Below are positions 1,263 through 23,771 of a stretch of DNA of 24,298 bases, piece after piece. Both the position numbers and the translations under genes were made by a program. Source of the stretch: Candidatus Hodarchaeaceae archaeon (GTDB taxonomy: Archaea > Hadarchaeota > Hadarchaeia > Hadarchaeales > Hadarchaeaceae). Numbering within the stretch: position 1 is the stretch's first letter; each line of letters opens with the position of its first letter. The stretch spans positions 1-24,298 of the forward strand of contig JASEGJ010000015.1 in the NCBI GenBank assembly GCA_030018135.1. Reading direction: 5' to 3'. The notes beneath the pieces are model-generated. The model was not told the DNA's origin. It saw nothing but the letters and a program-made list of their open reading frames with translations, and ran no database searches.

Positions 1263-1553
1263 ATGATCGAAAAACGGAATGTAAAGATCGATGGAAAGGA
1301 AGCGTTCGGTCTGAAGGTCGAGTTGCCGGGAGCACCGATGTTGTTGCTCGTGGCTCCCAGGGGCTACGTCATGTGTGGGTACCTGAACATAGAAACCGCG
1401 GAAAGGCTGGGGCAGGTCGCCGCGGTGGTGACGGGCGTCAAGAGCTTTGAAGATGTGCTCGGCGCGGAGGTCGCGAGGGTCACTGCCCAAGCGAGGCGGC
1501 TCGGGGTCAAGGAGGGCATGCTGGGCAGAGAGGCGCTGAGGCTAATGTTCTAG
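1263..1553 (+). CDS. DUF1805 / YunC family protein
   Basis: 96 aa with motifs GYVMCGYLN, AAVVTGVKSFEDVL, LGVKEGM. GGAGGTG ribosome-binding site precedes ATG 1263, so the ORF-track start at 1179 is too far upstream. Confidence 0.8.
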   Translation: MIEKRNVKIDGKEAFGLKVELPGAPMLLLVAPRGYVMCGYLNIETAERLGQVAAVVTGVKSFEDVLGAEVARVTAQARRLGVKEGMLGREALRLMF

Positions 1554-2354
1554 CTTGGTAGCTGCCTTCATGGCCCTTCCAAATCCGTCGAGTTCCCTCA
1601 GCATTTTCCGCTCATTTTCACGATATCTTGCGACGATGTCGACGAAGGCGCTACCGACGATTGCGCCGTCCGCCCCCCACCTGAGCACCTCGCTGACGTG
1701 CGCGGGCTTGGATACCCCGAAGCCCACGGTGAGCGGCAGTTTGCCCCCCGAGGAGGCGCGCGCCCTAGCTATCAGCCCCCTGACCTCGTCGGACAGGCCC
1801 CTGCGCGCCCCCGTCACGCCGAGCAGCGAAACCAAATAGAGGAAGCCGCTCGAAAGGCTGCAGATTCGCCTCAGGCGCTCCGGCGTGGTGGTGGGCGAGG
1901 CCAGAAGGATGAGGTCGATGTCTTGATTTTTTGCGGCATTCAGCACCTCGCCCGACTCCTCCACCGGCAGATCGGGTATGACGATGCCATCGCCGCCCGC
2001 CGCGGCCAGCCTGCGCACGAAGTTCTCCACGCCAGGTCTGAACACGATGTTGCAATAGGAGAGCACCACCAGCGGCACATCGCTTCCGCTACGGATTCGC
2101 TCGATGATCTCGAAAACCGTCTCTGGGGTCGTGCCCGCCGAGAGCGCCCGGTCGTCCGAGGCTTGGATGGTCGGACCATCCGCGATCGGGTCGGAGAAGG
2201 GAAGGCCGAGTTCCAGGATATCCGCATGTTCGACGAGCACCTCGGCTATTCTCGGGGTCAGCGAGGGCCTGGGGTCGCCAGCCGTGACGAACGCGATCAA
2301 CGCGCCCTCCCCTCGTCCGCGCAGCTCGGCAAATTTCGCGGCTATCCTGCTCAA
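1542..2354 (-). CDS. trpA: Tryptophan synthase alpha chain
   Basis: [50 protein letters not shown] start overlaps the trpB stop (TTGA). Confidence 0.95.
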
Positions 2355-3547
2355 GTCTCGACCCCCATGTAGCGCGCCGCGATCTCCACATCCTTGTCGC
2401 CCCTGCCCGACAGGTTGATCACGACGAGCGCCCCCTTGCCCAGCTCCCGCCTCAGCCTCGGCAGGTACGCTAGCGCGTGCGCGGATTCCAGCGCCGGCAG
2501 GATGCCCTCGGTCTCGCACAGCAGCCTGAAAGCTTTCATCGCCTCGTCGTCGCCGACGCATCCATACTTGACGCGACCGCGCAGCTTCATGAACGCATGC
2601 TCCGGGCCGACGCCGGGGTAGTCCAGGCCAGCCGCTATGCTGTGCGTCCGCATGACCTGCCCGAACTCATCCTGCAACACGTAGCTGCGCGCGCCGTGCA
2701 GGACGCCCTCCGATCCGGCGCAAAGCGTTGCGGCATGCTTTCCCGTGCGAAGCCCCTCGCCGGCGGCCTCGACGCCGTAGAGCTTGACATCATCGTCGAG
2801 GAAATCGTAGAAGATGCCGATCGCATTGCTCCCGCCGCCGACGCAGGCGACGATGGCATCCGGCAGGCGACCCTCCTTCTCCAAGATCTGCTCCTTGGTC
2901 TCCCGCCCTATCACGCGCTGAAAGTCGCGCACGATCATGGGGTAGGGATGTGGGCCGACTATCGAGCCGAGCAGGTAGTACGTGGTGCGGACGTTTGTCG
3001 TCCAGTCCCGCAGGGCCTCGTTGATCGCGTCCTTGAGCGTGCGGGAGCCAGCCCTCACCTCGTGCACCTCAGCGCCGAGCAAGCGCATCCTAAACACGTT
3101 GAGGCGCTGCCGCTGCGCGTCCTTGCTACCCATGTATATCTCGCATTTCAGCCCAAGCATCGCGGCGGCCGTCGCGGTGGCCACACCGTGTTGGCCAGCA
3201 CCGGTCTCAGCGATGACACGTTTCTTGCCAATGTATTTGGCGAGCAGGCACTGCCCGAGTGTATTATTGAGCTTATGTGCACCTCCGTGCAAAAGGTCTT
3301 CTCTTTTCAAATACACCTTCAATCCCACTTCGGCCCCAAGCCGTTTGGCGCGGTAAAGAGGGGTCGGCCTACCGCCAAAATCTCCCAGCAATTTTTGAAG
3401 CTCCCTCTGAAACTTTGACCCCCTACTCACCTTTAGATAAGACTTCTCGAGTTCTTTGAGCGCGGGCATGAGCGTTTCAGGGACGAATTTTCCCCCGAAT
3501 TTTCCGAAGTATCCATGTTCGTCCGGGTATTTACCAACAAGGGACAT
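2351..3547 (-). CDS. trpB: Tryptophan synthase beta chain (TrpB1 type)
   Basis: [12 protein letters not shown] (PLP lysine), [39 protein letters not shown]. Confidence 0.97.
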
Positions 3548-3548
3548 G

Positions 3549-4202
3549 TCAAAACGCCTCCTTCACCACCTCGACGAAAGCCCTCATCAACGCCGGGTCC
3601 TTTTTGCCGGGGCTCGATTCGACGCCGCTCGACACGTCCACGCCGTAGGGTCTCACGGCCTCGATCGCATCCCCCACATTGGCCGGGTTCAAGCCTCCAG
3701 CCAGAAACACCGGTTTGGAAACGGCATCCCGGATCATCCGGCTAATCCTCCAATCGTGCGTTAAGCCAGTGCCCCCGCCGGACGGCCCCTTGGTGTCGAG
3801 CAAGAGATAGTCGACAAACTCGCCAGCTTCGAGTGCACGGCTGAAAACTCCCTCCGGGTCTTCAACCCTTTGCGGCACCCCGACCACGCCGATCAGTTTG
3901 GCCCTCGTGATCCTCCTCGCCTGCTCAAACCGCTCAGCCGGAAGGCCCGAATGAATCTGCAGGTAATCCGGCTTCAGCTTCCGGGTTATCCTCCTGATCT
4001 CGATTGGACCATTGGGCACGACGACCACCACCTTCTCGACGGACTCGGGGACAACGCGCAGGATTTCGATCGCCCGCTCGAGTGCGACGTTCCTCGGCGA
4101 AGTTGGAGTTCCGACTAGCACGCCGATCATGTCCGCGCCGAGTTCGCAGGCGATCCTCGCGTCCTCGCCGTTCGTGAAGCCGCATATCTTGACCACGACC
4201 AC
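3549..4202 (-). CDS. trpF: Phosphoribosylanthranilate isomerase
   Basis: [44 protein letters not shown] 4202 follows a GAGGTGA ribosome-binding site. Confidence 0.93.
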
Positions 4203-4206
4203 GAGC

Positions 4207-4977
4207 TCACCTCGCACTGACGAGCGATCGCACCTTACTCGCAACCTCGCTGGAGCGCATCAATGCGGTGCCGACGAGCACGGCATCCGCGCCCGCCTCG
4301 AGCACGGCCCTTACATCACCCGGCCCACTTATGCCGCTTTCGCTCACGAGCATCACATCGTCGGGCACCAGGGGGGCAAGTCGCCTGGTGCGACCGATGT
4401 CGACCCGCATGGTCCTCAGGTCGCGGTTGTTTATGCCGATGATTTCGGCTCCGGCCGAGGTGGCCAGTTTTACCTGCCCCTCGTCGCCGACCTCGACCAG
4501 GCTCTCCATCCCGAGCTCTCGAGCCAGCCCCATGAATCTGGGGAGCCTCCTCCCCAAGAGCTCGGTTATCAGCAGGATTGCATCGGCGCCCAGCTCGCCC
4601 GATTCATAAAGTTGGTACTCCTCGACGATGAAATCCTTCCGCAAGACGGGCACGTCCACGATTTTTCGTATCCTCGGCAGGTAGCTCGGGTCCCCCTTGA
4701 AGTACTTTGGCTCGGTCAACACCGACAGAGCGATCGCACCTCCGTCGACCATCGCCCGCGCCACCTCGAAAACATCAGCGTCAAGGTTGATGTCCCCGGC
4801 GGAAGGCGCCGCCCGCTTCACCTCGGCGATCAGCGGTACCTCGGGCGCCCCCTCGATGGCTTTTCGTAGGCTGCGCTTGGGTGAGCGATCGATGATCATC
4901 TCCCCGGCGGGCTTAACGCTGGCCCGCTGTCTTACCGCAGCCCGCACATCCCTCACGATTTTTTCGAGGACGTTCAG
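4207..4977 (-). CDS. trpC: Indole-3-glycerol phosphate synthase (probable CTG start; first standard start codon is GTG 4956)
   Basis: IAEVKRAAPS, LSVLTEPKYF, LRKDFI, GINNRDL, VSESGI, LVGTALM. In-frame extension (M)NVLEKIV is a typical TrpC N-terminus and is preceded by GGAGG. Confidence 0.92.
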   Translation of the reverse strand: MNVLEKIVRDVRAAVRQRASVKPAGEMIIDRSPKRSLRKAIEGAPEVPLIAEVKRAAPSAGDINLDADVFEVARAMVDGGAIALSVLTEPKYFKGDPSYLPRIRKIVDVPVLRKDFIVEEYQLYESGELGADAILLITELLGRRLPRFMGLARELGMESLVEVGDEGQVKLATSAGAEIIGINNRDLRTMRVDIGRTRRLAPLVPDDVMLVSESGISGPGDVRAVLEAGADAVLVGTALMRSSEVASKVRSLVSAR

Positions 4978-6049
4978 AGGATCGCCTCCAGTGCCCTCAA
5001 CTTTTGCATATCTCCGCCCGTGGCCTCGACGAGCCGGACGAGTTTCTCGTAGCTCCTGCCTGAGTCGATGGCCTCCTCCGCGGCCTCCAAGCCCTCCCGC
5101 ATATCGTTTGCCTTGCCGCCGACCACGATGGCGGCCGCCGCGTTGAGCAGAACTCCGCCGCGTTGAGCAGAACTATATCCCGCTTCGGTCCCTCCTCGCC
5201 GCGCAGCACCCTGAGCATCGTCAGCGCGTTTTCCGCCGCGTCCTCGCCGGCTATTGCGTGTGGACTCGCGCGCCGGATGCCGAAATCTTCCGGCGATATC
5301 GTATAGCTCCTGACGCCGCCATCGAAGACCTCCGAAATTTGGGTTACCCCAATCGTCGAAATTTCGTCCAAGCCACCCAAGCCATGGACGACCATGGCAC
5401 GCTCGCAGCCGAGCCTCGCCAACACGTGCGCGAGTTTTTCCGCCAAGGCGACATCGTAAACCCCCACCACCTGCGCCTGCGCGCCGGCGGGATTTGTGAG
5501 TGGGCCAAGCACGTTAAAAACGGTCCTCACGCCCATCTCCCTGCGCGGCCCTATCGCGTGCTTCATCGCACCGTGGAAGACTGGCGCAAACATGAAGCCG
5601 ATGCCGGTGCCCTCGATGACCCGCTTGACCTCCCGCGGCTGTAAGTCTATGCGCACGCCCAGGGCTTCGACCACATCGGCACTCCCCGCTCTGCTCGTTA
5701 CGGAACGGTTTCCATGTTTTGCTATCACGACCCCAGCGCCGGCCGCGACGAACGTGGCTGCCGTGCTGATGTTGAAGGTCTTGATCTTATCGCCGCCCGT
5801 GCCGCAGGTGTCGACCAGCAACCCATTCACGTTTGGATTTATCCGCGCAGCGAACTCCCGCATGACTCGGGCGAAGGCCGTGATTTCCGCGATGGTCTCG
5901 CCCTTCATGCGCAGGGCCGTCAGGAATGAGCCTATTTGAGCCGGCGTGGCCTCGCCGGACATTATGCATTTCATCGCGCCCTCGGCTTCTGCGTCCGTCA
6001 AATCTTTGCGATCGATTAGCTTCCCAATTATGGCATGCATGACGTTCAC
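4974..6049 (-). pseudogene. trpD: Anthranilate phosphoribosyltransferase, frameshifted as assembled by a 20-bp tandem duplication
   Basis: [35 protein letters not shown]. Removing one repeat copy restores the C-terminus [26 protein letters not shown]...LEAIL* ending at 4974 (351 aa). Identity is certain; pseudogene status is not. Confidence 0.8.
5135..5174. repeat. Perfect 20-bp tandem duplication CCGCCGCGTTGAGCAGAACT x2
   Basis: Copies at 5135-5154 and 5155-5174. Confidence 0.97.
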
Positions 6050-6621
6050 GCGACCATCTCAAGAAAATTCTTTACGATGAGTTTTCCCTGCAGCGTCAGC
6101 ACGGACTCCGGATGAAATTGGACCCCTCAGATGGGGTATCGCTTGTGCCTGAGCCCCATGATCTCGCAATCCTCGTCGACGGTCTCCGCCACCACCTGCA
6201 GACAGCTCGGCAGGGTTGCGCGGTCGACGGCCAATGAATGGTAGCGCGTTGCCCTGAAGGGGTTCGGCACCCTTTCGAAAAGCCTGCTGTCGTCGTGTCT
6301 TATGAGCGAGGTCTTGCCGTGCATCAAACGCTTTGCCTGCACCACCCTTCCGCCAAATGCATAGGCGATTGCTTGGTGCCCGAGACAAACGCCCAGGGTC
6401 GGCACCCTTTTGCCCAGCCTCTTGACGACGTTCACGGAGACGCCGGCATCCTTCGGGGTCTTCGGGCCAGGGGAGATCACCACCCCGTCCGGCTTTGCCT
6501 CGATGATCTTTCGCAGGGAGATATCGTTCGTGAAGATCACAGGCTCGGCGCCGAGCTCGCCCAAATACTGCACGAGATTGTAGACGAAAGAGTCGATGTT
6601 ATTTATCACGGCGATACGCAT
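6046..6621 (-). pseudogene. trpG: Anthranilate synthase component II (class I glutamine amidotransferase) with an internal in-frame TGA at 6129-6127
   Basis: DSFVYNLVQY, ISPGP, GVCLGHQ, TRYHSL. The frame continues past the TGA as [26 protein letters not shown] to 6046, overlapping the trpD GTG. Identity is certain; status (nonsense mutation, readthrough or error) is not. Confidence 0.8.
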
Positions 6622-8124
6622 TTAAACACCCGCCGCCGCGAGCAAAGATCTCGCCTTGTTCTCGGTTTCATAATATTCCTTCCATGGCGTGGAATCCGCG
6701 ACTATGCCCGCGCCGACCTGAATGTAGCCCACGCCGCGCTCGGCCACCAAAGTCCTTATGGTGATCGCGAGATCGGCTTGGCCGGCGTAGTTCAGCGAGC
6801 CTATCGCCCCGGCGTAAATTCCGCGCCTCGTCGGCTCGAGCTCCTCAATTATCTCCATCGCCCGAACCTTTGGCGCGCCGGTGACGGTACCGGCGGGAAA
6901 GGTTGCCCGCAGCGCGTCGAGTTCACCCTCGCCTTCCCGCAGCCGCCCGGCCACCGTACTCACGAGGTGTTGGACGTGACCATACTTCTCGATTTTCATG
7001 AACTCCGTGAGCCTGACCGAACCGAACTCGCAGACGCGCCCGATATCGTTCCTCCCAAGGTCGACGAGCATGACGTGCTCCGCCCGCTCCTTTTCATCCG
7101 CCAGCAGACCTTGTTCGAGAGCCCTGTCCTCCTGCTCATCCTTACCCCTTCGCCTGGTGCCAGCGATTGGCCTCGTCACCACCTCCCGGCCGTCGACCTT
7201 CACGAGGATTTCCGGGCTTGAGCCGACGATGCTTCGCCTCGGGAAGTCCAAGAAGAACATGTATGGAGAGGGGTTGATCCGCTTGAGGTTCATATAAAAT
7301 CGCCCGAGCGGCGGCGCTGGTTCGAGCCTGATCCTCCTCGAAAGTACGACTTGAATGATGTCGCCTGCGCGGATGTAGTCCTTAGCTACCTCAGCGCTTC
7401 TCTCGAAGTCAGCCTTTTCGACGTTCGACTTAAACGTTATTCTTGAGTCGGCCTCGGCTCTAGGGGTGGGTTTCATCGCCTTGAGCCACTTGATATTGGC
7501 GAGCGCTCGCTCGTATGCCGTTCGCACATCGAAGCCGTCTGTGAGCAACATCAGCGAGTAGCAGTAGGTGCGGCGCTCCAAGTGGTCGAAGATCATCGCT
7601 CGCTCGGGCAACATGAATTCCACATCTGGGTGGCGAAGGTCGTCGATAGCATGGTTGTCTAGGTCGACGACGGAGCGGATGAAATCATAGCTGATGTAAC
7701 CCACAGCACCGAGCATGTAACGCGGGCCCAGTATTCGAGGCACTTGCATGCTCTTGAGGAACATGGCCTCCTTCAGCACCTCGAGTGAGTCGGAACCGTG
7801 TCTAACACGCTCCGCGCGGCTCCTAGCGAGTTCGACAACGTCTGGCCTACCGCTGACCTCCAACACGCAGTCTCGGACAGCGACGTATAGCAGCGGGTCG
7901 CATCCCATGACCGAGTACCTCGCGGCATGCTGCGGTCCCTCGGCCGATTCGAGCAGGTAGGACGAGCGATGCAGTCGCCTGATGCGCAGGTACGTCTTGG
8001 CCGGATCCGTGCAGCCTCCAATCGCGATGGCAAGCGGAATTAGGCAGGGCCTGCCGAGTTCATCGGCTAGTTGGCTGGCCTCCTCGATGCTTGGGGTCGG
8101 CTTCGATGGTTTTTCTCCCTTCAA
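6622..8124 (-). CDS. trpE: Anthranilate synthase component I (start uncertain: TTG 8124 or TTG 8136)
   Basis: LLES and NPSPYM Trp-feedback motifs, GSSPE, PIAGT, EHVMLVDLGRND, FPAGTVTGAPK, GAGIVADS. The ORF-track ATG 8181 lies among the TRP boxes, upstream of the TATA box. Confidence 0.93.
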   Translation of the reverse strand: MKGEKPSKPTPSIEEASQLADELGRPCLIPLAIAIGGCTDPAKTYLRIRRLHRSSYLLESAEGPQHAARYSVMGCDPLLYVAVRDCVLEVSGRPDVVELARSRAERVRHGSDSLEVLKEAMFLKSMQVPRILGPRYMLGAVGYISYDFIRSVVDLDNHAIDDLRHPDVEFMLPERAMIFDHLERRTYCYSLMLLTDGFDVRTAYERALANIKWLKAMKPTPRAEADSRITFKSNVEKADFERSAEVAKDYIRAGDIIQVVLSRRIRLEPAPPLGRFYMNLKRINPSPYMFFLDFPRRSIVGSSPEILVKVDGREVVTRPIAGTRRRGKDEQEDRALEQGLLADEKERAEHVMLVDLGRNDIGRVCEFGSVRLTEFMKIEKYGHVQHLVSTVAGRLREGEGELDALRATFPAGTVTGAPKVRAMEIIEELEPTRRGIYAGAIGSLNYAGQADLAITIRTLVAERGVGYIQVGAGIVADSTPWKEYYETENKARSLLAAAGV

Positions 8125-8154
8125 GTTTAAGCCCAAAGAGGTTTCTAGGGCTTT

Positions 8155-8210
8155 TGTACTATTTAAGGCTTTGTTGTACATAATTGTACGGAGAAGAAAA
8201 AGCCTCTACA
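8155..8210 (-). promoter_or_regulatory. trpE promoter: TATA box TTAAATA (8166-8160) flanked by TRP boxes (TrpY operators)
   Basis: Plus strand TGTACT 8155-8160, TGTACA 8175-8180, TGTACG 8185-8190, TCTACA 8205-8210, all on a 10-bp grid. TGTACA is the TrpY consensus described in Methanothermobacter thermautotrophicus. Confidence 0.8.
8191..8201 (-). terminator. Possible U-rich terminator of the aroC-aroK-CM/trpY transcript
   Basis: Minus strand TTTTTCTTCTC downstream of the trpY stop and just upstream of the main TRP box pair. Confidence 0.3.
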
Positions 8211-8287
8211 ACCACACCGTCACTGAGAAAATCAGATGTATTGATTGAGTCCCGTCAACTTTGATTTTTTGTCCGCTGTCATGCTCG

Positions 8288-9076
8288 CTAATAGACGATG
8301 ACGCTCTGCACGCTCGGCAGCTTGCGGAGCGCCTCGATTACTTCCCCCTTGACTGGCTCGTCGGTGATGATCGTCAGCTTGGGCTGCGGCACAAAATACG
8401 GGTCGTCAGCAATCGCCTGTCTGATGCTTATGCCAAACCTTGAGATCGCGCCAGTGACCTCGCTTATTATGCCCGGCCGAGTGGCATCCCTGGGCAGGAT
8501 CTCCACCACGCCAAGCCCGAGCCGCCGAGACACGCCCTTGAGGTAGGCGATCGGTTCGAGGTTTGCAAACACCTCCCGCAGTTCCCTGTTCTGGAGGATT
8601 GCCCTAGCCGCTGCATCGACGACGCGCCTATCGACGCCAGCTTCCTTGGCGATTTGAACGGCGGGGATGCGGATGTCCCCGCACGCGATCTCGCCGTCAT
8701 CGCGGACGCGCAGGCCATATTTAAACAGCACTCGAACGACGTTTAGTTGCGCGGGATGGCCCTCGAATGCCCCTTGAACTTGGGCCCACATCCCCGCCCC
8801 GCCCGCGCGCTCGATCTGAGCACCAGCCATCTGGGCAATGGTCAGCCTCATCAGGCTCTCGATGAACGCCGGGTCTAAGCCCTTCTTCTTCGCCCTCTCC
8901 TTCGCCAAAGCCACAATCGCCCGTTCCCTCGCCTCATCGCGGATGCCCGCGCCCAGCTTTTTCTTTAGGGCGACCAAGTCCTCGACGAGCCTCAGCCTTT
9001 GAGCGAGCAGGTCTATCAGCTGCTCATCGATCCGATCTATCTCGCGCCGCAGGGCCCCCAATTTCCTCTCGCTCAT
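8288..9076 (-). CDS. trpY: Fusion protein: N-terminal AroQ chorismate mutase plus C-terminal TrpY-family regulator (HTH + ACT)
   Basis: aa 1-90 carry the AroQ pattern LRREIDRIDEQLIDLLAQR...K...IRDEARE...Q. Linker AGGAG. aa 96-262 (MWAQV...GLRV...IACGDIRI...AGVDRRVV...GISIRQA...LTIITDEP...V.VY) follow the TrpY pattern. Confidence 0.85.
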   Translation of the reverse strand: MSERKLGALRREIDRIDEQLIDLLAQRLRLVEDLVALKKKLGAGIRDEARERAIVALAKERAKKKGLDPAFIESLMRLTIAQMAGAQIERAGGAGMWAQVQGAFEGHPAQLNVVRVLFKYGLRVRDDGEIACGDIRIPAVQIAKEAGVDRRVVDAAARAILQNRELREVFANLEPIAYLKGVSRRLGLGVVEILPRDATRPGIISEVTGAISRFGISIRQAIADDPYFVPQPKLTIITDEPVKGEVIEALRKLPSVQSVIVY

Positions 9077-9945
9077 GATTTAACCTCCATGCGCGCCCCT
9101 TCTATCGACGGCCTAGTAACTACTATCCTACCCGGTCTCTTTTGCCATATCCTTTTTACTCTGCCGACGTCGCCCGGCCTAGCTATTGCCACAACTGCTG
9201 GCCCGGTGCCAGTCAGGCCAGCTGCGAGGGCACCCATCTTCAGCGCATCTAGCGCGATGTCCTGATCGTGTCCGAGCGCACAGGAGTAGAGCAAACCGTT
9301 GAGCGTCAGGGCGCCCAAGATGTCCCCTCCCAACGCTTGTTTGTGGGCAGCTTCGACAAATTTTGACAGGAGTTTAGTCCTCTCGACATCGACCCGAGCG
9401 GTGTGAAGTTTGGCAGGTGGCACGTGGATAAGCACCCTCAGCTTTGGGTCGACCCTGAAGCGCTTCAGTACGCGCCGCTTGAAATTGTCCGTTATCACGC
9501 CGCCGCCAAAAAAGGAGGCAGCGGCATCGTCAAGCGCGCCCGTGATTGTAACGCCCGCCTCCAGGGCTGCGTCTATGCCCAAGTTTACGGCGACCTTGGG
9601 CTGAGGCTTTTCGCCAAGCGCGGCAAAGGTCGCCAAGATTGTGGCGTTGGCTGCGGCGCTGCTGCTGGACAGGCCAACGGCTATTGGCACCTCGGAGGTC
9701 GTCGATATCTTTGCGCCATAGGTGCGATCTAACCCGAGGTGTTCGAGAACCCTCCGCGCGCAAACCTCTATCAGGCGCGGGCTTTCAGATGGCTCGTCAG
9801 CTATTCGCCCCACGATCTCGCCAGCCCGATCCGTAAGCTCAACTTCCGCTCGAACGCGCAGGTCGACGGCGAATGCGGCCCCCTTGCCAGTCGCGATGGC
9901 GTTGACCACGGTCGCGGAGCCGCAGGCGGAGGCGATGCCCCTCAC
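9073..9945 (-). CDS. aroK: Archaeal (GHMP-family) shikimate kinase
   Basis: [48 protein letters not shown] and ATGA overlaps with its neighbours. Confidence 0.93.
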
Positions 9946-11048
9946 TTTCTTACCTCGAACCGATTGGGATCTATTTTGCCAGCGCGGAGCATTTGGTCGG
10001 CCAGCACGATCGCGAGCATGGCCTCAGCTACGGGGACTATGCGCGGGCAGATGTTGGGATCGAATCTTCCCTTGAGTTTCAGCTCGACCTCCTCCATGCG
10101 CGCGATGTCGACCGTGCGCTGGGGCTTGGTTATGGACGGCGTGGGTTTGACCGCTATTCTGGCGACGATCGGCATGCCCGTGCTTATCCCGCCGAGAATT
10201 CCTCCCGCGTTATTTGTCAGGCTCACGATCTTCCCCCTCCTCAGCGCCAGAGGATCGTTCATCTCGGAGCCCCGCATCCTCGTTGCCATGAAGCCAGCGC
10301 CTATTTCAACTCCCTTGACCGAGCCGATCGACATCAGTGCGTGAGCAATCTCAGCGTCGAGCTTATCGAACACTGGATCGCCGAGCCCGGCTGGCACGTT
10401 GAGCGCGAGCACCTCGACCACGCCGCCCGTGCTATCGCCCGCCTCGCTCGCCTTCAGCACCTCTTCCTTCATCCTTTCGGCAACGCCCAGGTCGGCGCAC
10501 CTCATCGGATTTTTTTCAACATTTTTTCTGATCTCGTCCGGCTTGACCTCTCGTCCAACCGCCACGCCGGCCGCCTCGACGGTATGCCCAAGGACCTCGA
10601 TGCCGTGCGCGGCCAGGAGCTTCTTGGCGATAGCACCGGCCGCGACCCGAGCGATGGTTTCCCTCGCCGCCCCCCTGCCACCTCCACGGTGGTCGATGTG
10701 CCCGAACTTCAGCCAATAAGGGAGTTCGACATGCCCAGGTCTGGGCTTGGTCTTTATCGCCTCATAGGGGCTTGAGTCGACATCGACGTTGCGCACGAGC
10801 ATGCAGATCGGCGTGCCCAAAGTTTTGCCTTCGAACACGCCCGATAGGATCTCAACGCGATCCCTCTCGGCCCTTGGGGTCGTGACGATCGATTGACCCG
10901 GGCGGCGACGGTCAAGCTCCCGTTGCACATCGGCCTCGCTCAGGGGCATGCCCGCTGGCACGCCGTCCACGACTACGCCGATGGCGACGTTGTGCGATTC
11001 TCCGAACGACATCATGCGAAAAATCTTTCCAAAGGTGTTTCCGCCCAT
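9942..11048 (-). CDS. aroC: Chorismate synthase
   Basis: [59 protein letters not shown] 11048 follows GGGGTGG; the ORF-track start at 11207 lies inside aroA. Confidence 0.93.
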
Positions 11049-11078
11049 AATGCCACCCCATCTGAGCTTTAACATGCC

Positions 11079-11086
11079 TTTTAAAA
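11079..11086 (-). promoter_or_regulatory. Putative TATA box for aroC-aroK-CM/trpY
   Basis: TTTTAAAA 31-38 nt upstream of the aroC ATG, with a purine-rich BRE-like stretch 5' of it, in a 115-bp intergenic gap. Confidence 0.5.
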
Positions 11087-11163
11087 TCCTCCATTTTTCA
11101 ATGTTTTCGGCTGAATGTATATCTCCATGTTGCTTTTGTAACCTTTGGCCCCAGAGGTAAACG

Positions 11164-12453
11164 TCACCACACAAGTTCCAGCCGACCACCCAATTTTCGC
11201 ATGTCATCGATGAAGTTTGGGTAAGACACTTTAACGCTCTCCGCCCCGTCTATGACCGTCTCCCCCTTTGCGACCAGACCAGCGACCGCTAGCGCCATGG
11301 CCATGCGGTGGTCGCCGTAGGAGGTAAGGCTGGCGCCCTTGAGCTGCTTTACCCCCCGCAGGTGGAGTTCGCCGGGCAACTCCTTCACCCGGGCCCCCAA
11401 TTTGTGCAGCTCGCTGGCGAGCGCGCGGAGACGGTCCGTCTCCTTGTACCTGAGGTGTGGGATGTTTGTGAGTGCCGTCCGACCATCGGCGACCGCCCCG
11501 AGCACCGCGAGCACCGGCACTAGGTCGGGGTTGTCGCCGCAATCCGCTTCAATCCCGGTCAGCCCTCCGGCGCCGGTGACCTCTACGGTCCTGCCCCGAA
11601 CCCTCAAATCAACCCCAAACTCGCGGAGCATGTCGACTATGCGCTTGTCCCCCTGCGCCCCGCGGACATCGAGGTTGTTCACCCTGACTTCAACCCCGGT
11701 CAGCGCCGCAGCCCCGAGGACAAATGCTGCGGATGAAAAATCGCCCGGGATGCTGAATCGGGTTGCCTTGAAAACTTGCCTTCCCGGGATCCAGAATTCC
11801 GTGAGGGCCCGATTGTGCTTGATCTTTGCCCCAACCGCGTCCAGCACCTCGAGCGTTATCTCGACGTAGGGCCTGGAGCGCAGTTCCTCGGTTATCGATA
11901 GCTCGACGCCGCCCTCGGAATACGGACATGCGAGCAGCAAAGCTGAGATGAATTGTGAGCTGACCGCGCCGGTGATCTCGACCTCCCCCCCTTTGAGCCC
12001 GCCCCCCACAACGACCGGCGGTCTGCCCCTCGGTCCCTCGCACCTCGCCCTGGCGCCCAGCTTCGCCAGGGTTTCTATGAGCTGCCCCATCGGGCGCGCG
12101 CGAATCGAAGCGTCGCCCGTCAGGTGCACGGAACTCGGCGACAGCGCGGCGATCGCGCTCATGAAGCGAAGCGTGGTGCCGGAGTTGCGCACATCGATGA
12201 GGTCGGCTCTTGGCTCGAGGTGCCCCGCGGTGCCGACAATCCGCCAAGTCGTCCCTTCTTGTTTGACCTCAGCGCCGAGGATTCGAGAGGCATCGATGGT
12301 GGCCAGAGTATCAAAACTCAGAAGCGGGTCGATGACTCTACTTTCGCCGCGCGCGAGCAGGCCTATGGAAAACGCCCGATGCGTGTAGCTCTTCGATGGT
12401 GGGGCGGTGACCTCGCCAGCAAGCGTCGATGGCTTGACCCTTAGGATGGCCAT
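11164..12453 (-). CDS. aroA: EPSP synthase (3-phosphoshikimate 1-carboxyvinyltransferase)
   Basis: [50 protein letters not shown]. Confidence 0.96.
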
Positions 12454-12484
12454 GAACTTCCCGCTAAACAGTCTTCAAAAGCCC

Positions 12485-12491
12485 TAATATA
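12485..12491 (-). promoter_or_regulatory. Putative aroA TATA box (TATATTA)
   Basis: Minus strand caaacgc-TATATTA, 32-38 nt upstream of ATG 12453. Confidence 0.4.
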
Positions 12492-12627
12492 GCGTTTGAT
12501 AACTCAATGATTAGCCAACGGTGAAAAACATGGGGAAGGCAGGGTGCTGCGCGGAGCCCTGTTGCTTTTATTGCTGGAGTAGCCCCTGTTTCAGTAGATG
12601 GAACCTTTTTTGCCAATTCGGCATGCA

Positions 12628-12641
12628 TTTTAACATGTACA
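12628..12641 (+). promoter_or_regulatory. Putative aroA' operon TATA box with an abutting perfect TRP box
   Basis: TTTTAACA 12628-12635 immediately followed by TGTACA 12636-12641. TTG start at 12667. Confidence 0.5.
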
Positions 12642-12666
12642 TTCTTAACTCGGAAGGGGTGGTTGA

Positions 12667-15314: not shown

Positions 15315-16177
15315 TATCGGGTAAAACAAAACTTTTCGCGCTGATGGGCGATCCCGTGGAGCAAAGCCTCTCGCCGGCGATGCACAACGCAGCCTTTAGG
15401 GCGCTCGGGCTCGATTGCGTGTATCTCGCGCTCAGGGTACAAAGGGCGATGTTGGCGGATGCCATAGCTGGCGTCCGTGCATTGGGCATAACTGGCCTAA
15501 ATGTCACACACCCGCACAAGGTCAATGTCTTAAATTTGCTCGATGAACTGGATGAATCGGCGAGCGCGGTTGATGCAGTCAACACCATCAAAAATGATAG
15601 GGGCAAGCTCGTAGGCTTCAACACGGACGGGCCTGGCGCCGTTCTAGCGCTCGAGCGAGAGGTCGGTAAGCTAGCTGGTCGTAGAGTTTTATTGCTCGGC
15701 GCTGGAGGGGCGGCTCGATCCATAGCTTTCTCGCTGGCCAAAGCGCGGGCGGAGTTAACTATCGCGAACCGCACCGCCCTCAAGGCGCAGGGACTGGTCG
15801 CCGCGATCAAACAGAGGCTGGGGGTGGACGTGGGGCAAATAGGAATAGGGCGCAAGGAGCTTGCGGGTGCCATAAAGCGGGCGGATATCCTCATAAATGC
15901 GACGACGATCGGCATGCGCCCGAACATCAACCGAACCCTCGTGACGGCGAGCATGATGCACCGCGATCTAGTGGTCAACGATATAGTTTACGAGCCAGTT
16001 CAGACGAGGCTGCTCCGAGAGGCAAGAAAAGCTGGCGCTAGGACGGTAACAGGTTTAGGGATGCTTGTGCATCAAGGGGTATTGGCGTTCGAAATATGGA
16101 CGGGCAGGAGGGCGCCGATTAAATTTATGAGGACAGCAGTTAAACGTGAGCTGCGCAGACGGGGTGAGAAGGTTTGA
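15311..16177 (+). CDS. aroE: Shikimate dehydrogenase
   Basis: SLSPAMHN, NVTHPHK, AVNT, NTDG, GAGGAA, NRT, DIVY, GMLVHQ. ATGA overlap with aroD. Confidence 0.96.
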   Translation: MISGKTKLFALMGDPVEQSLSPAMHNAAFRALGLDCVYLALRVQRAMLADAIAGVRALGITGLNVTHPHKVNVLNLLDELDESASAVDAVNTIKNDRGKLVGFNTDGPGAVLALEREVGKLAGRRVLLLGAGGAARSIAFSLAKARAELTIANRTALKAQGLVAAIKQRLGVDVGQIGIGRKELAGAIKRADILINATTIGMRPNINRTLVTASMMHRDLVVNDIVYEPVQTRLLREARKAGARTVTGLGMLVHQGVLAFEIWTGRRAPIKFMRTAVKRELRRRGEKV

Positions 16178-17040
16178 GGTTCGCGATCATCGGCGCGGGC
16201 GCGATGGGTAAATGGTTTGCCAGCTTTGCGAAGCAAAACTTGGGCGAGGTCGAGGTAGCAGACGTAAGTGCCGCAAAGGCTAGGCAGGTCGCTGATGAGC
16301 TGGGCGTGAAAGCAGCGGAGACGGGCGCCGAGGCAGCTGCTCGGGCGGATGTCGTCATAGTCGCAGTGCCAATCACCAAAACTCCGGATGTTGTTAAATC
16401 GCTCGCGAAATGCATGCGGAAGGGCTCGCTCATGATGGACATCGCGTCGGCGAAGAGCGATGTGGTGGGCACGATGCGTGAACTCGATGTTGAGCTTGAG
16501 CTCGTTTCGATTCATCCGCTCTTTGGCCCAGGAGCGGCGACCATGAGCGGAAAAGATTTTGTGGTCGTTCCCGTAAAGCCGGGGAAACTCTACGCCGAGT
16601 TTAAACGGCGTTTGGTGGAGCTAGGCGCACGTGTAACCGAAATGGAGGCGGAGGAACACGACCGCATAATGGCGATCTCTCAATGTCTAACGCACTTTGT
16701 GCTCCTTTCGTACCTCTCCGCACTTAATTCGATGAAGGACTCGAGGCGCGCGAAACAACTATGCACGCCCATGTCCGAAGCCCTGCTCAATCTGGCCAAA
16801 TCCGTCCTAGCTGGAAACCCGGACCTTTACGGCGAGGTTCAAGTCCTAAATAGGTATGCGCAACTTACGCGCAGCAAGTTGATGGAGGCCTGTCACTCGC
16901 TAGATGTGGCATTCGCGGCACGCGATATCAAGGTAGCTCGCAAGATCTTCAGCGATTCGTTGAAGCTATTGGGTCGGGCGGATGCGCAAGCCGCATATAA
17001 GCAATTGTACAAGTACCTAGAGAGCGGGGAAGGAACATGA
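16174..17040 (+). CDS. tyrA: Prephenate (cyclohexadienyl) dehydrogenase
   Basis: IIGAGAMG Rossmann motif, VAVPI, DIASAK, SIHPLFGP, EHDRIMA.SQ.LTH. TTGA overlap with aroE. Confidence 0.9.
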   Translation: MRFAIIGAGAMGKWFASFAKQNLGEVEVADVSAAKARQVADELGVKAAETGAEAAARADVVIVAVPITKTPDVVKSLAKCMRKGSLMMDIASAKSDVVGTMRELDVELELVSIHPLFGPGAATMSGKDFVVVPVKPGKLYAEFKRRLVELGARVTEMEAEEHDRIMAISQCLTHFVLLSYLSALNSMKDSRRAKQLCTPMSEALLNLAKSVLAGNPDLYGEVQVLNRYAQLTRSKLMEACHSLDVAFAARDIKVARKIFSDSLKLLGRADAQAAYKQLYKYLESGEGT

Positions 17041-17858
17041 AGGTTGCCATACTTGGTCCACGCGGCACATACGCGGAGATCGCTGCCCGCTTGAGGTTTG
17101 GTAGCAGCGCCGAAATCGCGCCGTATTCGATGATTACAGATGTGGCTGAGGCAGTGGCGCGCGGTGAGGTCGACGCCGGCATCATACCAGTCGAAAGCCT
17201 ACGCGAGGGCTCGGTGGGCGAGGCACTGGATGCGCTCGCTTGGACGGATATAAAGGTTCAGGCGGAGATTGTGGTGCCGATATCTCATTGCCTGATCGGC
17301 GTGCCGGGTGCAAAACTCGAAAATATCACGCAGGTGCTCTCCCACCCCCAGGCACTGGCGCAGTGTCGGGATTTCCTGCGCAAAAATCTACCAAAGGCTG
17401 AGCTGATCGAAATGACGAGCACGGCGAGGGCCGCTGAACAAGTGGGCAAACTTAAACAGCCATATATGGCGGCGATAGGACCTAGAGCGCTGGCGGACAC
17501 CTACGGGCTGGAGGTGTTGCGGGGAAACATACAAGCAAGCGAGATGAATATAACCCGGTTCCTGTGTCTGGCCAAAGAGGACAGCAGGCCAACTGGCCAC
17601 GACAAGACATCGATAGTCTTTTACACCGCGGAGGATAGGCCGGGCATATTGTATGAAATTCTGCGGGAGTTCGCGGTGCGGAACATCAACCTGACGAAGA
17701 TAGAGTCGCGCCCCTCCAAGAGGGTATTGGGCGATTATCTATTCTTCATAGATTTTGAGGGTCACCGTGAAGATGCTCGGGTGCGCGAGGCCCTAGAGGC
17801 CCTGCAGACCAAGGTAGCGATGCTCAAGGTCGTCGGATCGTATCCAAAACGCTTTTGA
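17037..17858 (+). CDS. pheA: Monofunctional prephenate dehydratase with C-terminal ACT domain
   Basis: LGPRGTY, SHPQALAQC, STA.AA, TRF, INLTKIESRP, FFIDFEGH, GSYP. No chorismate mutase domain. Confidence 0.94.
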   Translation: MKVAILGPRGTYAEIAARLRFGSSAEIAPYSMITDVAEAVARGEVDAGIIPVESLREGSVGEALDALAWTDIKVQAEIVVPISHCLIGVPGAKLENITQVLSHPQALAQCRDFLRKNLPKAELIEMTSTARAAEQVGKLKQPYMAAIGPRALADTYGLEVLRGNIQASEMNITRFLCLAKEDSRPTGHDKTSIVFYTAEDRPGILYEILREFAVRNINLTKIESRPSKRVLGDYLFFIDFEGHREDARVREALEALQTKVAMLKVVGSYPKRF

Positions 17859-23078: not shown

Positions 23079-23771
23079 ATGAGGCGAAAGGTCGTCCTCG
23101 AGCTTATCGATAGGTTGGGACAGCCCTATCACCGAGCCCTGGGCATCGACCTGAGTAAACGCGATGGCGGCGAGATGTTCAAATGGTTTATCGCATCGGT
23201 GCTCTTTGGCGCGCGGATATCCGAACGCATCGCGATGAACACCTACGAGCAATTTGAGCGCGATGGTCTGCTCACCCCTCACCGGATGATTGCGCGTGGT
23301 TGGTCCCGCCTCGTGGAGAGTTTGGACCGCGGAGGGTATGTCCGTTATGACTTCAGCACCGCGGATGAGCTTCTGGCACTCGCTGACTCCCTCTTGCGCA
23401 GTTATGGCGGCGACCTCAACCGCCTGCACGACAGCGCTAGGGATGCGGCTGACCTCGAGGCTCGCCTAAAAGAATTCAAGGGCGTAGGTGATGTTACAGT
23501 AAACATATTTCTCCGCGAACTCCGCGAAATTTGGCCCAAAGCCAAGCCATTGCCACAGGAACATGTTTTTGTCGCCGCGCGAAACCTCGGCCTAATTAAG
23601 TTGGGAGGGGGGGCTCCGGAGTTCGATGAACTCCAGCGGGTTTGGCGAGCAAACGCTCCGCCACATAGAAGCTTTGTGGAATTTGAAGTTGCCCTTTCTC
23701 GCTTGGGGAGGCTTTACTGCAGGAAGTCAAATTGTCGAGCTTGCCCGGTCAGCAAGTGGTGCAAACGCTGA
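23079..23771 (+). CDS. HhH-GPD / endonuclease III-like protein with a C-terminal four-Cys (Fe-S) motif
   Basis: Helix-hairpin-helix LKEFKGVGDVTVNIFL and C-terminal CRKSNCRACPVSKWC. Confidence 0.7.
   Translation: MRRKVVLELIDRLGQPYHRALGIDLSKRDGGEMFKWFIASVLFGARISERIAMNTYEQFERDGLLTPHRMIARGWSRLVESLDRGGYVRYDFSTADELLALADSLLRSYGGDLNRLHDSARDAADLEARLKEFKGVGDVTVNIFLRELREIWPKAKPLPQEHVFVAARNLGLIKLGGGAPEFDELQRVWRANAPPHRSFVEFEVALSRLGRLYCRKSNCRACPVSKWCKR

Follow-up and report, generated by a model that had tools for sequence, protein, structure and literature searches.

Control of tryptophan (Trp) synthesis in Archaea is understood essentially through two transcription factors, TrpY of one methanogen and Tar of Thermococcus (accessible part of PMC6737238). 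In Methanothermobacter thermautotrophicus, TrpY (MtTrpY) binds to TRP boxes present in the overlapping trpY and trpE promoters and, with Trp, represses trpEGCFBAD; Tar is an activator in the Thermococcales, and the homologues of TrpY form at least three groups (same part of PMC6737238). The subject here is a gene in which a TrpY-type regulator is joined to a chorismate mutase (CM). This CM-TrpY fusion gene occupies positions 8288-9076, minus strand, of the window, that is, of the whole 24,298-nt stretch of contig JASEGJ010000015.1 (assembly GCA_030018135.1) that was analysed. Its product is probably a bifunctional enzyme-repressor, present throughout the Hadarchaeales, in which a working CM is combined with a TrpY-type regulator of the trp genes.

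The genome that contains the window consists of 1,108,398 bases in 45 contigs and is 92.94% complete; the names of close homologues point to Hadarchaeales/Hadesarchaea. For the stand-alone regulator, Xie and Reeve reportedly described in 2005 a TRP-box consensus of TGTACA, repression by occlusion of the TATA-binding protein (TBP), and a residue, W2, that is the only Trp of TrpY. A further target is said to be trpB2, to judge from a title present in a reference list ([quoted passage not shown]).

The chorismate mutase-TrpY protein

The fusion gene encodes 262 amino acids (aa) followed by a TAG stop codon, and it contains no internal stops. Its parts are as follows.

8288..9076, minus strand: CM-TrpY fusion gene (open reading frame (ORF), Pfam and NCBIfam matches; full-length, stop-free copies in 60 of 66 phylum genomes)
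8807..9076, minus strand: AroQ chorismate mutase domain, aa 1-90, three long helices (CM_2, alignment to E. coli CM (EcCM), structure model, Foldseek)
8792..8806, minus strand: linker A-G-G-A-G, aa 91-95 (sequence; low confidence in the model; low conservation)
8516..8791, minus strand: N-terminal half of TrpY, aa 96-187, helical and winged-helix-turn-helix (HTH)-like, with the M-W start and D149-R150-R151 (NF053754, Foldseek)
8291..8515, minus strand: ACT domain of TrpY, aa 188-262, with R219-Q220 and D224-D225-P226 (Pfam ACT, structure model, Foldseek)
9073..9088, minus strand: translation signals, GGAGG at 9084-9088, 7 nt before the ATG at 9074-9076

The match of Pfam CM_2 extends over aa 9-82 (E = 2.4e-18; 66.5 bits, cut-off 27), and that of Pfam ACT over aa 200-254, with 27.0 bits, at its cut-off of 27. 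The NCBIfam model TrpY_fam (NF053754) matches aa 97-259 along its entire length (profile 1-163 of 163) with 206.2 bits against a cut-off of 180; the search at the level of the genome returned the same ORF with 207.1 bits. A preliminary description of this gene had reported one uninterrupted ORF of 262 aa, a TrpY identity for its C-terminal part, and an AGGAG linker leading into an M-W start. The single ORF is confirmed and lies on the minus strand, which had been left out; the full-length TrpY_fam match above cut-off upholds the identity, and residues 91-95 do read A-G-G-A-G, followed by M96-W97. In databases the regulator is easily overlooked. NCBI-derived names for the fused proteins are simply "chorismate mutase", a label that conceals the regulator half, and the JGI name is [quoted passage not shown].

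The HMMER alignment of the enzyme half to EcCM (1ecm_A) is ungapped, with query residue n corresponding to EcCM residue n+1. Thus, R10, R27, K38, D47, R50, E51, and Q87 are the equivalents of EcCM R11, R28, K39, D48, R51, E52, and Q88, and M83 lies at the position of S84, so that the residue equivalences of the preliminary description, including its Met in place of S84, are right. Conservation was read from an alignment of 41 fused proteins, which were picked from 121 to spread identity and are 55-82% identical to the query. R10, R27, K38, D47, R50, and E51 are invariant in all 41. Position 87 is E in 30 of these proteins and Q in 11; the equivalent residue is Q in E. coli CM and E in yeast CM, both of which are working enzymes. 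The position equivalent to S84 is variable (T, M, S, or A). The NCBIfam equivalog models for CM all score under their cut-offs (for example, PRK06285 with 55.7 against 77). In profile searches of the genome, CM_2 and TrpY_fam each match the fusion ORF and no other, and an AroH-type CM (CM_1) is absent from this 92.94%-complete assembly; the domain that had been described as the only CM in its cluster is therefore the sole CM_2, with no CM_1 beside it, in the genome as a whole. The N-terminal AroQ domain is probably the working CM of the cell, as its active-site residues and its genomic solitude suggest.

In the regulator half, all 41 fused proteins have W97, and in 33 of them it is the sole W. 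D149-R150-R151 and R219-Q220...D224-D225-P226 are likewise invariant; across 45 members of the TrpY family, these D-R-R and R-Q...D...P motifs reach at least 90% conservation. Most of the stand-alone TrpY relatives displayed begin with MW. The CM half has a mean pairwise identity of 0.49, against 0.67 and 0.71 for the HTH and ACT halves of the TrpY part; over aa 91-96 the value is 0.39. By this measure, constraint on the regulator half is no weaker than that on the enzyme half.

An AlphaFold model of the fusion protein has a mean predicted local distance difference test score (pLDDT) of 81.7 and a predicted template modelling score (pTM) of 0.44. The CM part is modelled as helices 2-41, 48-64, and 69-91, and the TrpY part as a helical/winged-HTH region followed by a beta-alpha-beta-beta-alpha-beta ACT fold. 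Foldseek matches the CM part to EcCM (5vht; TMt 0.84, root-mean-square deviation 1.3) and the TrpY part to many ACT domains and to the Lrp/AsnC-type HTH regulators 2cyy and 2e1c; by sequence, the TrpY part has no relative among solved structures (best E = 0.39). Residues 92-95 of the linker have a pLDDT below 50. Given this linker and the pTM, the model presents no fixed interface between CM and TrpY, and so speaks neither for nor against coupling of the two. Prediction of a homodimer gave 0.67, whereas the best of three controls scored 0.00. In calibration, 20 of 30 solved same-chain pairs attained this mark, as did 1 of 23 solved single chains. At least 91% of contacts are shared between runs, the partner pLDDT is at least 78, and the predicted interface comprises residues 2-82 together with residues 116-145, 165-186, and 199-225 of the TrpY part. 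The prediction supports a homodimeric fusion protein, with the reservation that the CM part may pass by its likeness to AroQ dimers already solved.

The distribution of the fusion was determined with the fusion protein as query against a set of 66 genomes of the phylum. It is matched in 61 of them (60 full-length, one cut by a contig end), and these matches span 19 of 20 genera and five families within one order. The preliminary description had named a stop within the linker, either in sequencing reads or in close relatives, as the observation that would divide the gene in two, and had proposed a search for the same architecture in related genomes. None of the 62 match rows from these 61 genomes contains a stop, and the architecture recurs, full-length and uninterrupted, in 60 of the 66. 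A split version, with separate CM and TrpY, was not seen among the 66 genomes. The five genomes that lack a fusion match also lack CM_2 in profile searches; one of the five, which belongs to a different order, lacks trpE and the aldolase as well. Among the best 120 protein clusters listed, nearly all have a length of 259-264 aa and an identity of 55-96% to the query over at least 95% of its length. Contigs from three sequencing runs of two studies (X1, X2, and X3) span the gene from 8265/8282 to at least 9358 with ~93% identity and 0 gaps; they leave 8206-8256 uncovered, a spacer that is replaced and not conserved. Matches are present in eight public runs, with a share of at most 0.12 in each, and no RNA run is among them. 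Judged from these sequences, the clade-wide enzyme-regulator fusion is real.

A profile-free search of 1.84 billion protein representatives returned 1,779 hits, and the statements that follow concern the best 150. Full-length coverage of both domains is limited to one cluster, P0046 (263 aa), and P0157 is a short fragment that spans the junction. The other matches to the TrpY part are nearly all stand-alone proteins of ~166-172 aa, most of which align their residue 1 to M96 of the fusion; the nearest stand-alone representative listed, P0122 from the Methanosarcinales/ANME-2, is 44% identical to the fused domain. Two odd architectures were set aside. P0233 contains tandem CM_2 domains. P0200 (285 aa), the one exception to the stand-alone form among the other complete hits to the TrpY part, consists of a partial DeoC-family aldolase (profile 3-147 of 229) and a C-terminal TrpY-like segment. 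It probably arose as a chimera or through a frameshift, and may be a sign that trpY adjoins the gene for 2-amino-3,7-dideoxy-D-threo-hept-6-ulosonate (ADH) synthase in some organism. An internal translation start at M96 was also considered as a conserved feature and rejected. The 41 fused proteins have M (25), V (10), L (3), I (2), or F (1) at position 96; with I or F in three of them, the residue is not kept as a start codon. The simplest history for these proteins would be a single event, in the ancestor of the order, in which aroQ was joined to a complete trpY at its start codon.

The trpE promoter block and the predicted regulon

The fusion gene is co-directional with trpE, from which it is separated by a spacer of 106 nt. 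The preliminary description had singled out the region 8150-8215 for binding experiments, and this region contains a block of three phased TGTACA-like boxes, conserved across the clade, around the B recognition element (BRE) and TATA element of trpE. The features of this candidate operator and of the spacer are as follows.

8146..8197, minus strand: trpE promoter/operator block, register score 22/22
8185-8189, minus strand: box 1, GTACA, in the trpE block
8175-8180, minus strand: box 2, TGTACA, in the trpE block
8160-8174, minus strand: BRE/TATA (TTAAATA at 8160-8166), in the trpE block
8155-8159, minus strand: box 3, GTACA, in the trpE block
8197..8201, minus strand: T5 run between the fusion stop and box 1 (sequence reading)

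The order within the block is (T)GTACA, 4-5 bases, TGTAC(A), a BRE/TATA-like CTAAAG-N-CTTAAATA, and then GTACA directly after. The starts of the boxes are 10 and 20 bp apart, that is, one and two helical turns. The block is kept in the spacer of all six loci in which trpE follows the fusion gene. The T5 run could be an archaeal oligo-T terminator of the upstream aro operon; T5-T6 runs are present at the equivalent place in three other loci (L015, L016, and L020). The mechanically called ATG of trpE (8181) lies within box 2, upstream of the TATA element, and in tblastn searches relatives align only from about residue 21 onward. Given the position of that ATG, the true start is probably an in-frame TTG, at 8136 or 8124; with a TTG start, trpE would have a short leader or none.

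Conservation of the block was scored in a fixed register of 52 nt (three GTACA boxes plus TTAAATA; maximum 22, threshold at least 17). Among the 30 best trpE loci of the phylum, 29 score 18-22, and the next-best site of each locus scores 13-15. A further 20 upstream regions were taken from trpE rows without a locus, after removal of duplicate contigs (G059:C18 and G032:C19), G029:C150, contig-end or partial rows (G002:C22, G063:C3, and G057:C5), G011:C23, which is the same as L020, and, as likely paralogues, all rows whose E value was 1e-84 or weaker. In 17 of these 20 the block scores 17-22 on the strand of the gene, and in two more it can be recognized by eye, shifted by one base. Thus, the block reaches threshold before trpE in 46 of 50 regions overall. 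The two clear misses are both from one genome (G025), whose two long trpE-type copies, L030 and L125, lack a complete block. Two types of trpE paralogue are present in the order, one at least 54% and the other ~48% identical to the TrpE of the window, and the block is usual in both. Most of the trpE genes that carry it are not linked to the fusion gene. Conservation and information content are confined to ~45 bp, and the maximum score in 30 other loci used as a control (106,138 bases) is 15. Separate short contigs from runs X1 and X2 match only the 34-bp core of the block (8154-8187), with two differences and diverging flanks, which indicates that the block recurs in other genomic places or in other organisms of those samples.

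A second target emerged from scans for tandem boxes. The pattern TGTACA-N4-TGTAC gave 48 strand-hits in 31 of the 66 phylum genomes, versus 11 for the reversed-pattern control, and the hits away from trpE led to a second recurrent gene, which encodes a TrpB-like enzyme dependent on pyridoxal phosphate (PLP) (NF009057, 753 bits) and is present in 57 of 66 genomes. This family we take to be TrpB2. In 9 of 30 loci, that of the window's own genome among them, the block scores at least 17 at a distance of 25-34 nt ahead of trpB2, and 7 more loci score 15-16 at the right place. The two features in this genome are as follows.

contig C2, ~23179-23230, minus strand: trpB2 block, score 19/22, ~32 nt before trpB2
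contig C2, 21808-23157, minus strand: trpB2, TrpB-like PLP enzyme (profile match)

When the whole genome (2.2 million positions) was scanned with the register, only two sites reached 17 or more, the trpE promoter with 22 and the trpB2 promoter with 19; the next-best score, 16, occurs at two sites. The trpE block is also the only TGTACA-N4-TGTACA site in the genome with at most one mismatch. With at most two mismatches there are 11 such sites, two of which, on contigs C43 and C13, were examined as possible targets; both lie inside long ORFs and were treated as chance. The predicted regulon would thus be specific to Trp, consisting of the trp operon and trpB2 only, and these two promoters match the named targets of MtTrpY. 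The blocks at trpE and trpB2 lend indirect support to the suggestion, made in the preliminary description, that the fusion protein represses trp genes.

Other occurrences of the box were assessed individually. The divergent region 12454-12666 contains a single TGTACA, at 12636-12641, beside the TATA element of the plus-strand operon and ~180 bp from the start of aroA. It was not counted as a TRP box, since relatives keep a CACAC...GTGTG palindrome there instead: in the promoter of the operon for the aldolase and 3-dehydroquinate synthase II (DHQS-II) (12620-12645; L089-L117), CACAC, a T/A-rich TATA-like run, and GTGTG are present in most of 30 relatives. This palindrome is a candidate operator for some regulator, or may be a weak variant site. 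One of the four TGTACA sequences in the window lies at 17006-17011, within the end of tyrA and 31 nt before pheA. In another genome (G009, contig C20, locus L144), TGTACA, AAAG, TGTAC, and a weak TATA-like stretch are found ~20 nt before an ORF that starts M-C-G-I-V-G; the register score is 14, and the start of the ORF resembles that of a class-II glutamine amidotransferase.

The genes around the fusion gene, with their Pfam assignments, can be listed as follows.

11164-12453, minus strand: aroA
9942-11207, minus strand: aroC
9073-9945, minus strand: GHMP-type aroK
6622..8136, minus strand: trpE (anthranilate synthase I), start probably TTG
1542..6621, minus strand: trpG, trpD, trpC, trpF, trpB, and trpA, the rest of the trp operon
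16174-17040, plus strand: tyrA, monofunctional
17037-17858, plus strand: pheA, monofunctional, prephenate dehydratase (PDT) plus ACT

The fusion gene is the last of the aroA-aroC-aroK operon, and its ATG (9074-9076) overlaps the TGA stop of aroK (9073-9075) as ATGA; in 20 of 20 loci the gene after aroK is CM-TrpY. The plus-strand operon contains genes for a DeoC-family aldolase, which is probably ADH synthase, and for DHQS-II, followed by aroD, aroE, tyrA, and pheA. The monofunctional tyrA and pheA that had been reported beside the fusion are both present in the window. The fusion gene is positioned between the genes that make chorismate and those that make Trp, and the users of prephenate are encoded by separate genes.

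Two apparent lesions are present in the trp operon. Within trpG an in-frame TGA (6127-6129, minus strand) lies ahead of the conserved G-V-Q-F-H-P-E-S; beyond it the same frame runs on to a normal C-terminus. In 27 relatives the residue at this position is F in 22, Y in 2, and W, L, and M in 1 each. The relative with W (L027, from G009) is the one whose fusion protein is nearest to that of the window, which makes a change from TGG to TGA or a sequencing error plausible. Within trpD a 20-nt unit in tandem duplication (5135-5174, minus strand) shifts the frame, so that the proper C-terminus is in another frame; the duplication is either a genuine lesion or a fault of the assembly.

Proposed action and its alternatives

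A bifunctional enzyme-repressor would probably operate at this locus as follows. The AroQ domain, probably as an intertwined homodimer, would supply prephenate to the monofunctional TyrA and PheA. The TrpY-family HTH+ACT module would recognize the three phased boxes that bracket the BRE/TATA of trpE, just downstream of its own gene, and would recognize the block at the trpB2 promoter as well. Binding of Trp in the ACT domain would then result in repression through occlusion of TBP and transcription factor B (TFB), by analogy with the TrpY of M. thermautotrophicus. Since the fusion gene is the last of aroA-aroC-aroK, with an ATGA overlap and a GGAGG of its own, the regulator would be made in step with the enzymes of the chorismate pathway. 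Enzyme activity, DNA binding to the boxes, Trp as the effector, and repression rather than activation are all features that we infer. By default, the CM and TrpY modules are taken to act independently of each other; coupling is possible.

Several observations weigh against the proposed enzyme-repressor. The boxes are degenerate: exact GTACA is found in 28, 19, and 25 of the 46 sites for boxes 1, 2, and 3, respectively. A different factor could bind to the block. Only 9 of 30 trpB2 loci reach threshold, and 14 of 30 show nothing at the expected place. There is no box before the aroA operon, and thus autoregulation in the style of TrpY is not apparent. In the Methanosarcinales, TGTACA is not found consistently near trpY in 7 loci and is absent upstream of trpE in 5 genomes, and CM, trpE, aroK, and other aro/trp genes do not lie beside trpY in 33 loci; the link between box and TrpY is therefore not a general one. 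The TrpY homologue of T. kodakarensis neither binds nor regulates the trp promoter (accessible part of PMC6737238), so membership in the family is not by itself proof of a role in Trp regulation. Finally, given the TGA in trpG and the frameshift in trpD, the very operon that would be regulated may be damaged here, or the assembly may be faulty.

A bolder version of the proposal is that the two halves communicate, as in a trigger enzyme. Trp would close the TrpY dimer on the operators of trpE and trpB2 and, through the AroQ dimer, would raise mutase activity; alternatively, or in addition, chorismate or prephenate in the mutase site would change the affinity for the operators. Such communication is tentative and somewhat unlikely. 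If it did occur, Trp would push chorismate toward phenylalanine (Phe) and tyrosine (Tyr), a logic convergent with that of the Trp-activated CM of yeast, and one protein would gauge both the substrate and the end product of competing branches. It would also be the first enzyme-coupled transcription factor known for archaeal amino acid metabolism.

Two alternatives to the enzyme-repressor seem unlikely, and to a similar degree. The first is that the TrpY-like part does not bind DNA and serves only as a cis-acting allosteric ACT module for the mutase, the block being read by another regulator. ACT domains are the classic allosteric modules of enzymes in aromatic pathways, such as the E. coli P-protein, and the pheA of the window has one. 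The T. kodakarensis homologue again provides a precedent for a TrpY without a role at the trp promoter (PMC6737238, as above), and the connection of the protein with the boxes is indirect. Against this reading, the HTH half is as conserved as the ACT half (0.67 vs 0.71) and more conserved than the enzyme half (0.49), with D-R-R in 41 of 41 proteins. In addition, the full 163-position TrpY profile is matched above cut-off by what is the only TrpY-family protein in the genome, and the two genomic sites of the block are at the two named targets of MtTrpY.

The second is that the protein does bind to the boxes but acts as an activator, or responds to chorismate, prephenate, Phe, or Tyr instead of Trp. 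Tar, which is embedded in the aro operon of the Thermococcales, is an activator (accessible part of PMC6737238), and the effector of an ACT domain is not readable from sequence. On the other side, box 3 lies directly after the TATA element and box 2 directly before the BRE, an arrangement that would suit occlusion of TBP/TFB better than their recruitment. The predicted regulon is specific to Trp, and the aro promoter carries a different palindrome.

It is very unlikely that the AroQ domain is a module for ligand sensing or dimerization rather than a working enzyme, with prephenate, or Phe and Tyr, obtained from elsewhere. An AroQ domain does have a regulatory role in fusions of CM with DAH7P synthase (DAH7P, the 7-phosphate of 3-deoxy-D-arabino-heptulosonate); the CM half of the present protein evolves faster than the regulator half, and a second CM could lie in the unassembled part of a genome that is 93% complete. 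Against this, none of the six core catalytic residues varies among the 41 fused proteins, position 87 is Q or E, the genome has no other CM_2 or CM_1, the five phylum genomes without the fusion have no CM_2 either, and tyrA and pheA, whose products need prephenate, are kept. That the fusion is an artefact of assembly or gene calling, made of two adjacent genes, can practically be dismissed: despite the two apparent lesions in neighbouring trp genes of the same metagenome-assembled genome, the same uninterrupted frame is present in 60 genomes of 19 genera and in gap-free contigs of three runs, nearly all of the best 120 clusters are 259-264 aa long with at least 95% query coverage, and residue 96 is not kept as a start.

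Comparison with described systems

Having noted these alternatives, we return to the enzyme-repressor and to its place among known proteins. The AroQ and TrpY families are themselves known; the fusion, and its block at trpE and trpB2, appear to be new. The preliminary description had stated that no characterised CM-TrpY fusion was known to it, and none was found in the literature searched; the accessible part of a survey of archaeal fusions (PMC11237513) is silent on it, and the supplementary table of that survey may bear on novelty. To the methanogen and Thermococcus would be added a third, uncultured lineage with a testable circuit, made of a regulator domain, a sharp candidate operator, and a predicted regulon of two promoters. 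Because the regulator is joined to the enzyme that opens the competing Phe/Tyr branch, coupling between the partitioning of flux and the control of genes can be tested with one protein and a 60-bp probe.

The regulator half resembles MtTrpY. The C-terminal 167 residues of the fusion match the TrpY family model end to end, with an M-W start and HTH and ACT halves. As with MtTrpY, boxes that resemble TGTACA, the consensus reported for that protein, flank the BRE/TATA of trpE in this genome and recur before trpB2. Unlike the stand-alone protein, however, the regulator of the fusion sits behind 95 residues of CM and linker, and its gene closes an aro operon that runs in the same direction as trpE, instead of lying divergent from trpE; that operon has no boxes of its own. 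Tar (TK0271 of T. kodakarensis; accessible part of PMC6737238) is similar in being a regulator for aromatic amino acids whose gene lies inside an aro operon, but it belongs to the unrelated MarR-like family.

On the enzyme side, the E. coli P- and T-proteins and the archaeal fusions of CM with PDT and, in some cases, prephenate dehydrogenase (CM-PDT(-PDH); accessible part of PMC11237513) also contain AroQ in one polypeptide with ACT or with other modules of the aromatic pathway. Their partners, unlike that of the present protein, are enzymes or purely allosteric domains with no DNA-binding HTH, and, unlike in those CM-PDT fusions, tyrA and pheA are separate genes in the window. In DAH7P synthase-AroQ proteins (Protein Data Bank entries 5j6f and 3nvt/3tfc, which are among the sequence hits of the CM part), AroQ is likewise fused to a protein that it may control; there, however, the partner is the first enzyme of the pathway and not a transcription factor. 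In trigger enzymes and enzyme-repressor fusions, such as PutA, BirA, and NadR, coupling between catalysis and DNA binding has been demonstrated. Like these, the CM-TrpY fusion would join a metabolic enzyme to a sequence-specific DNA-binding regulator of a related pathway, although the folds and the pathways differ.

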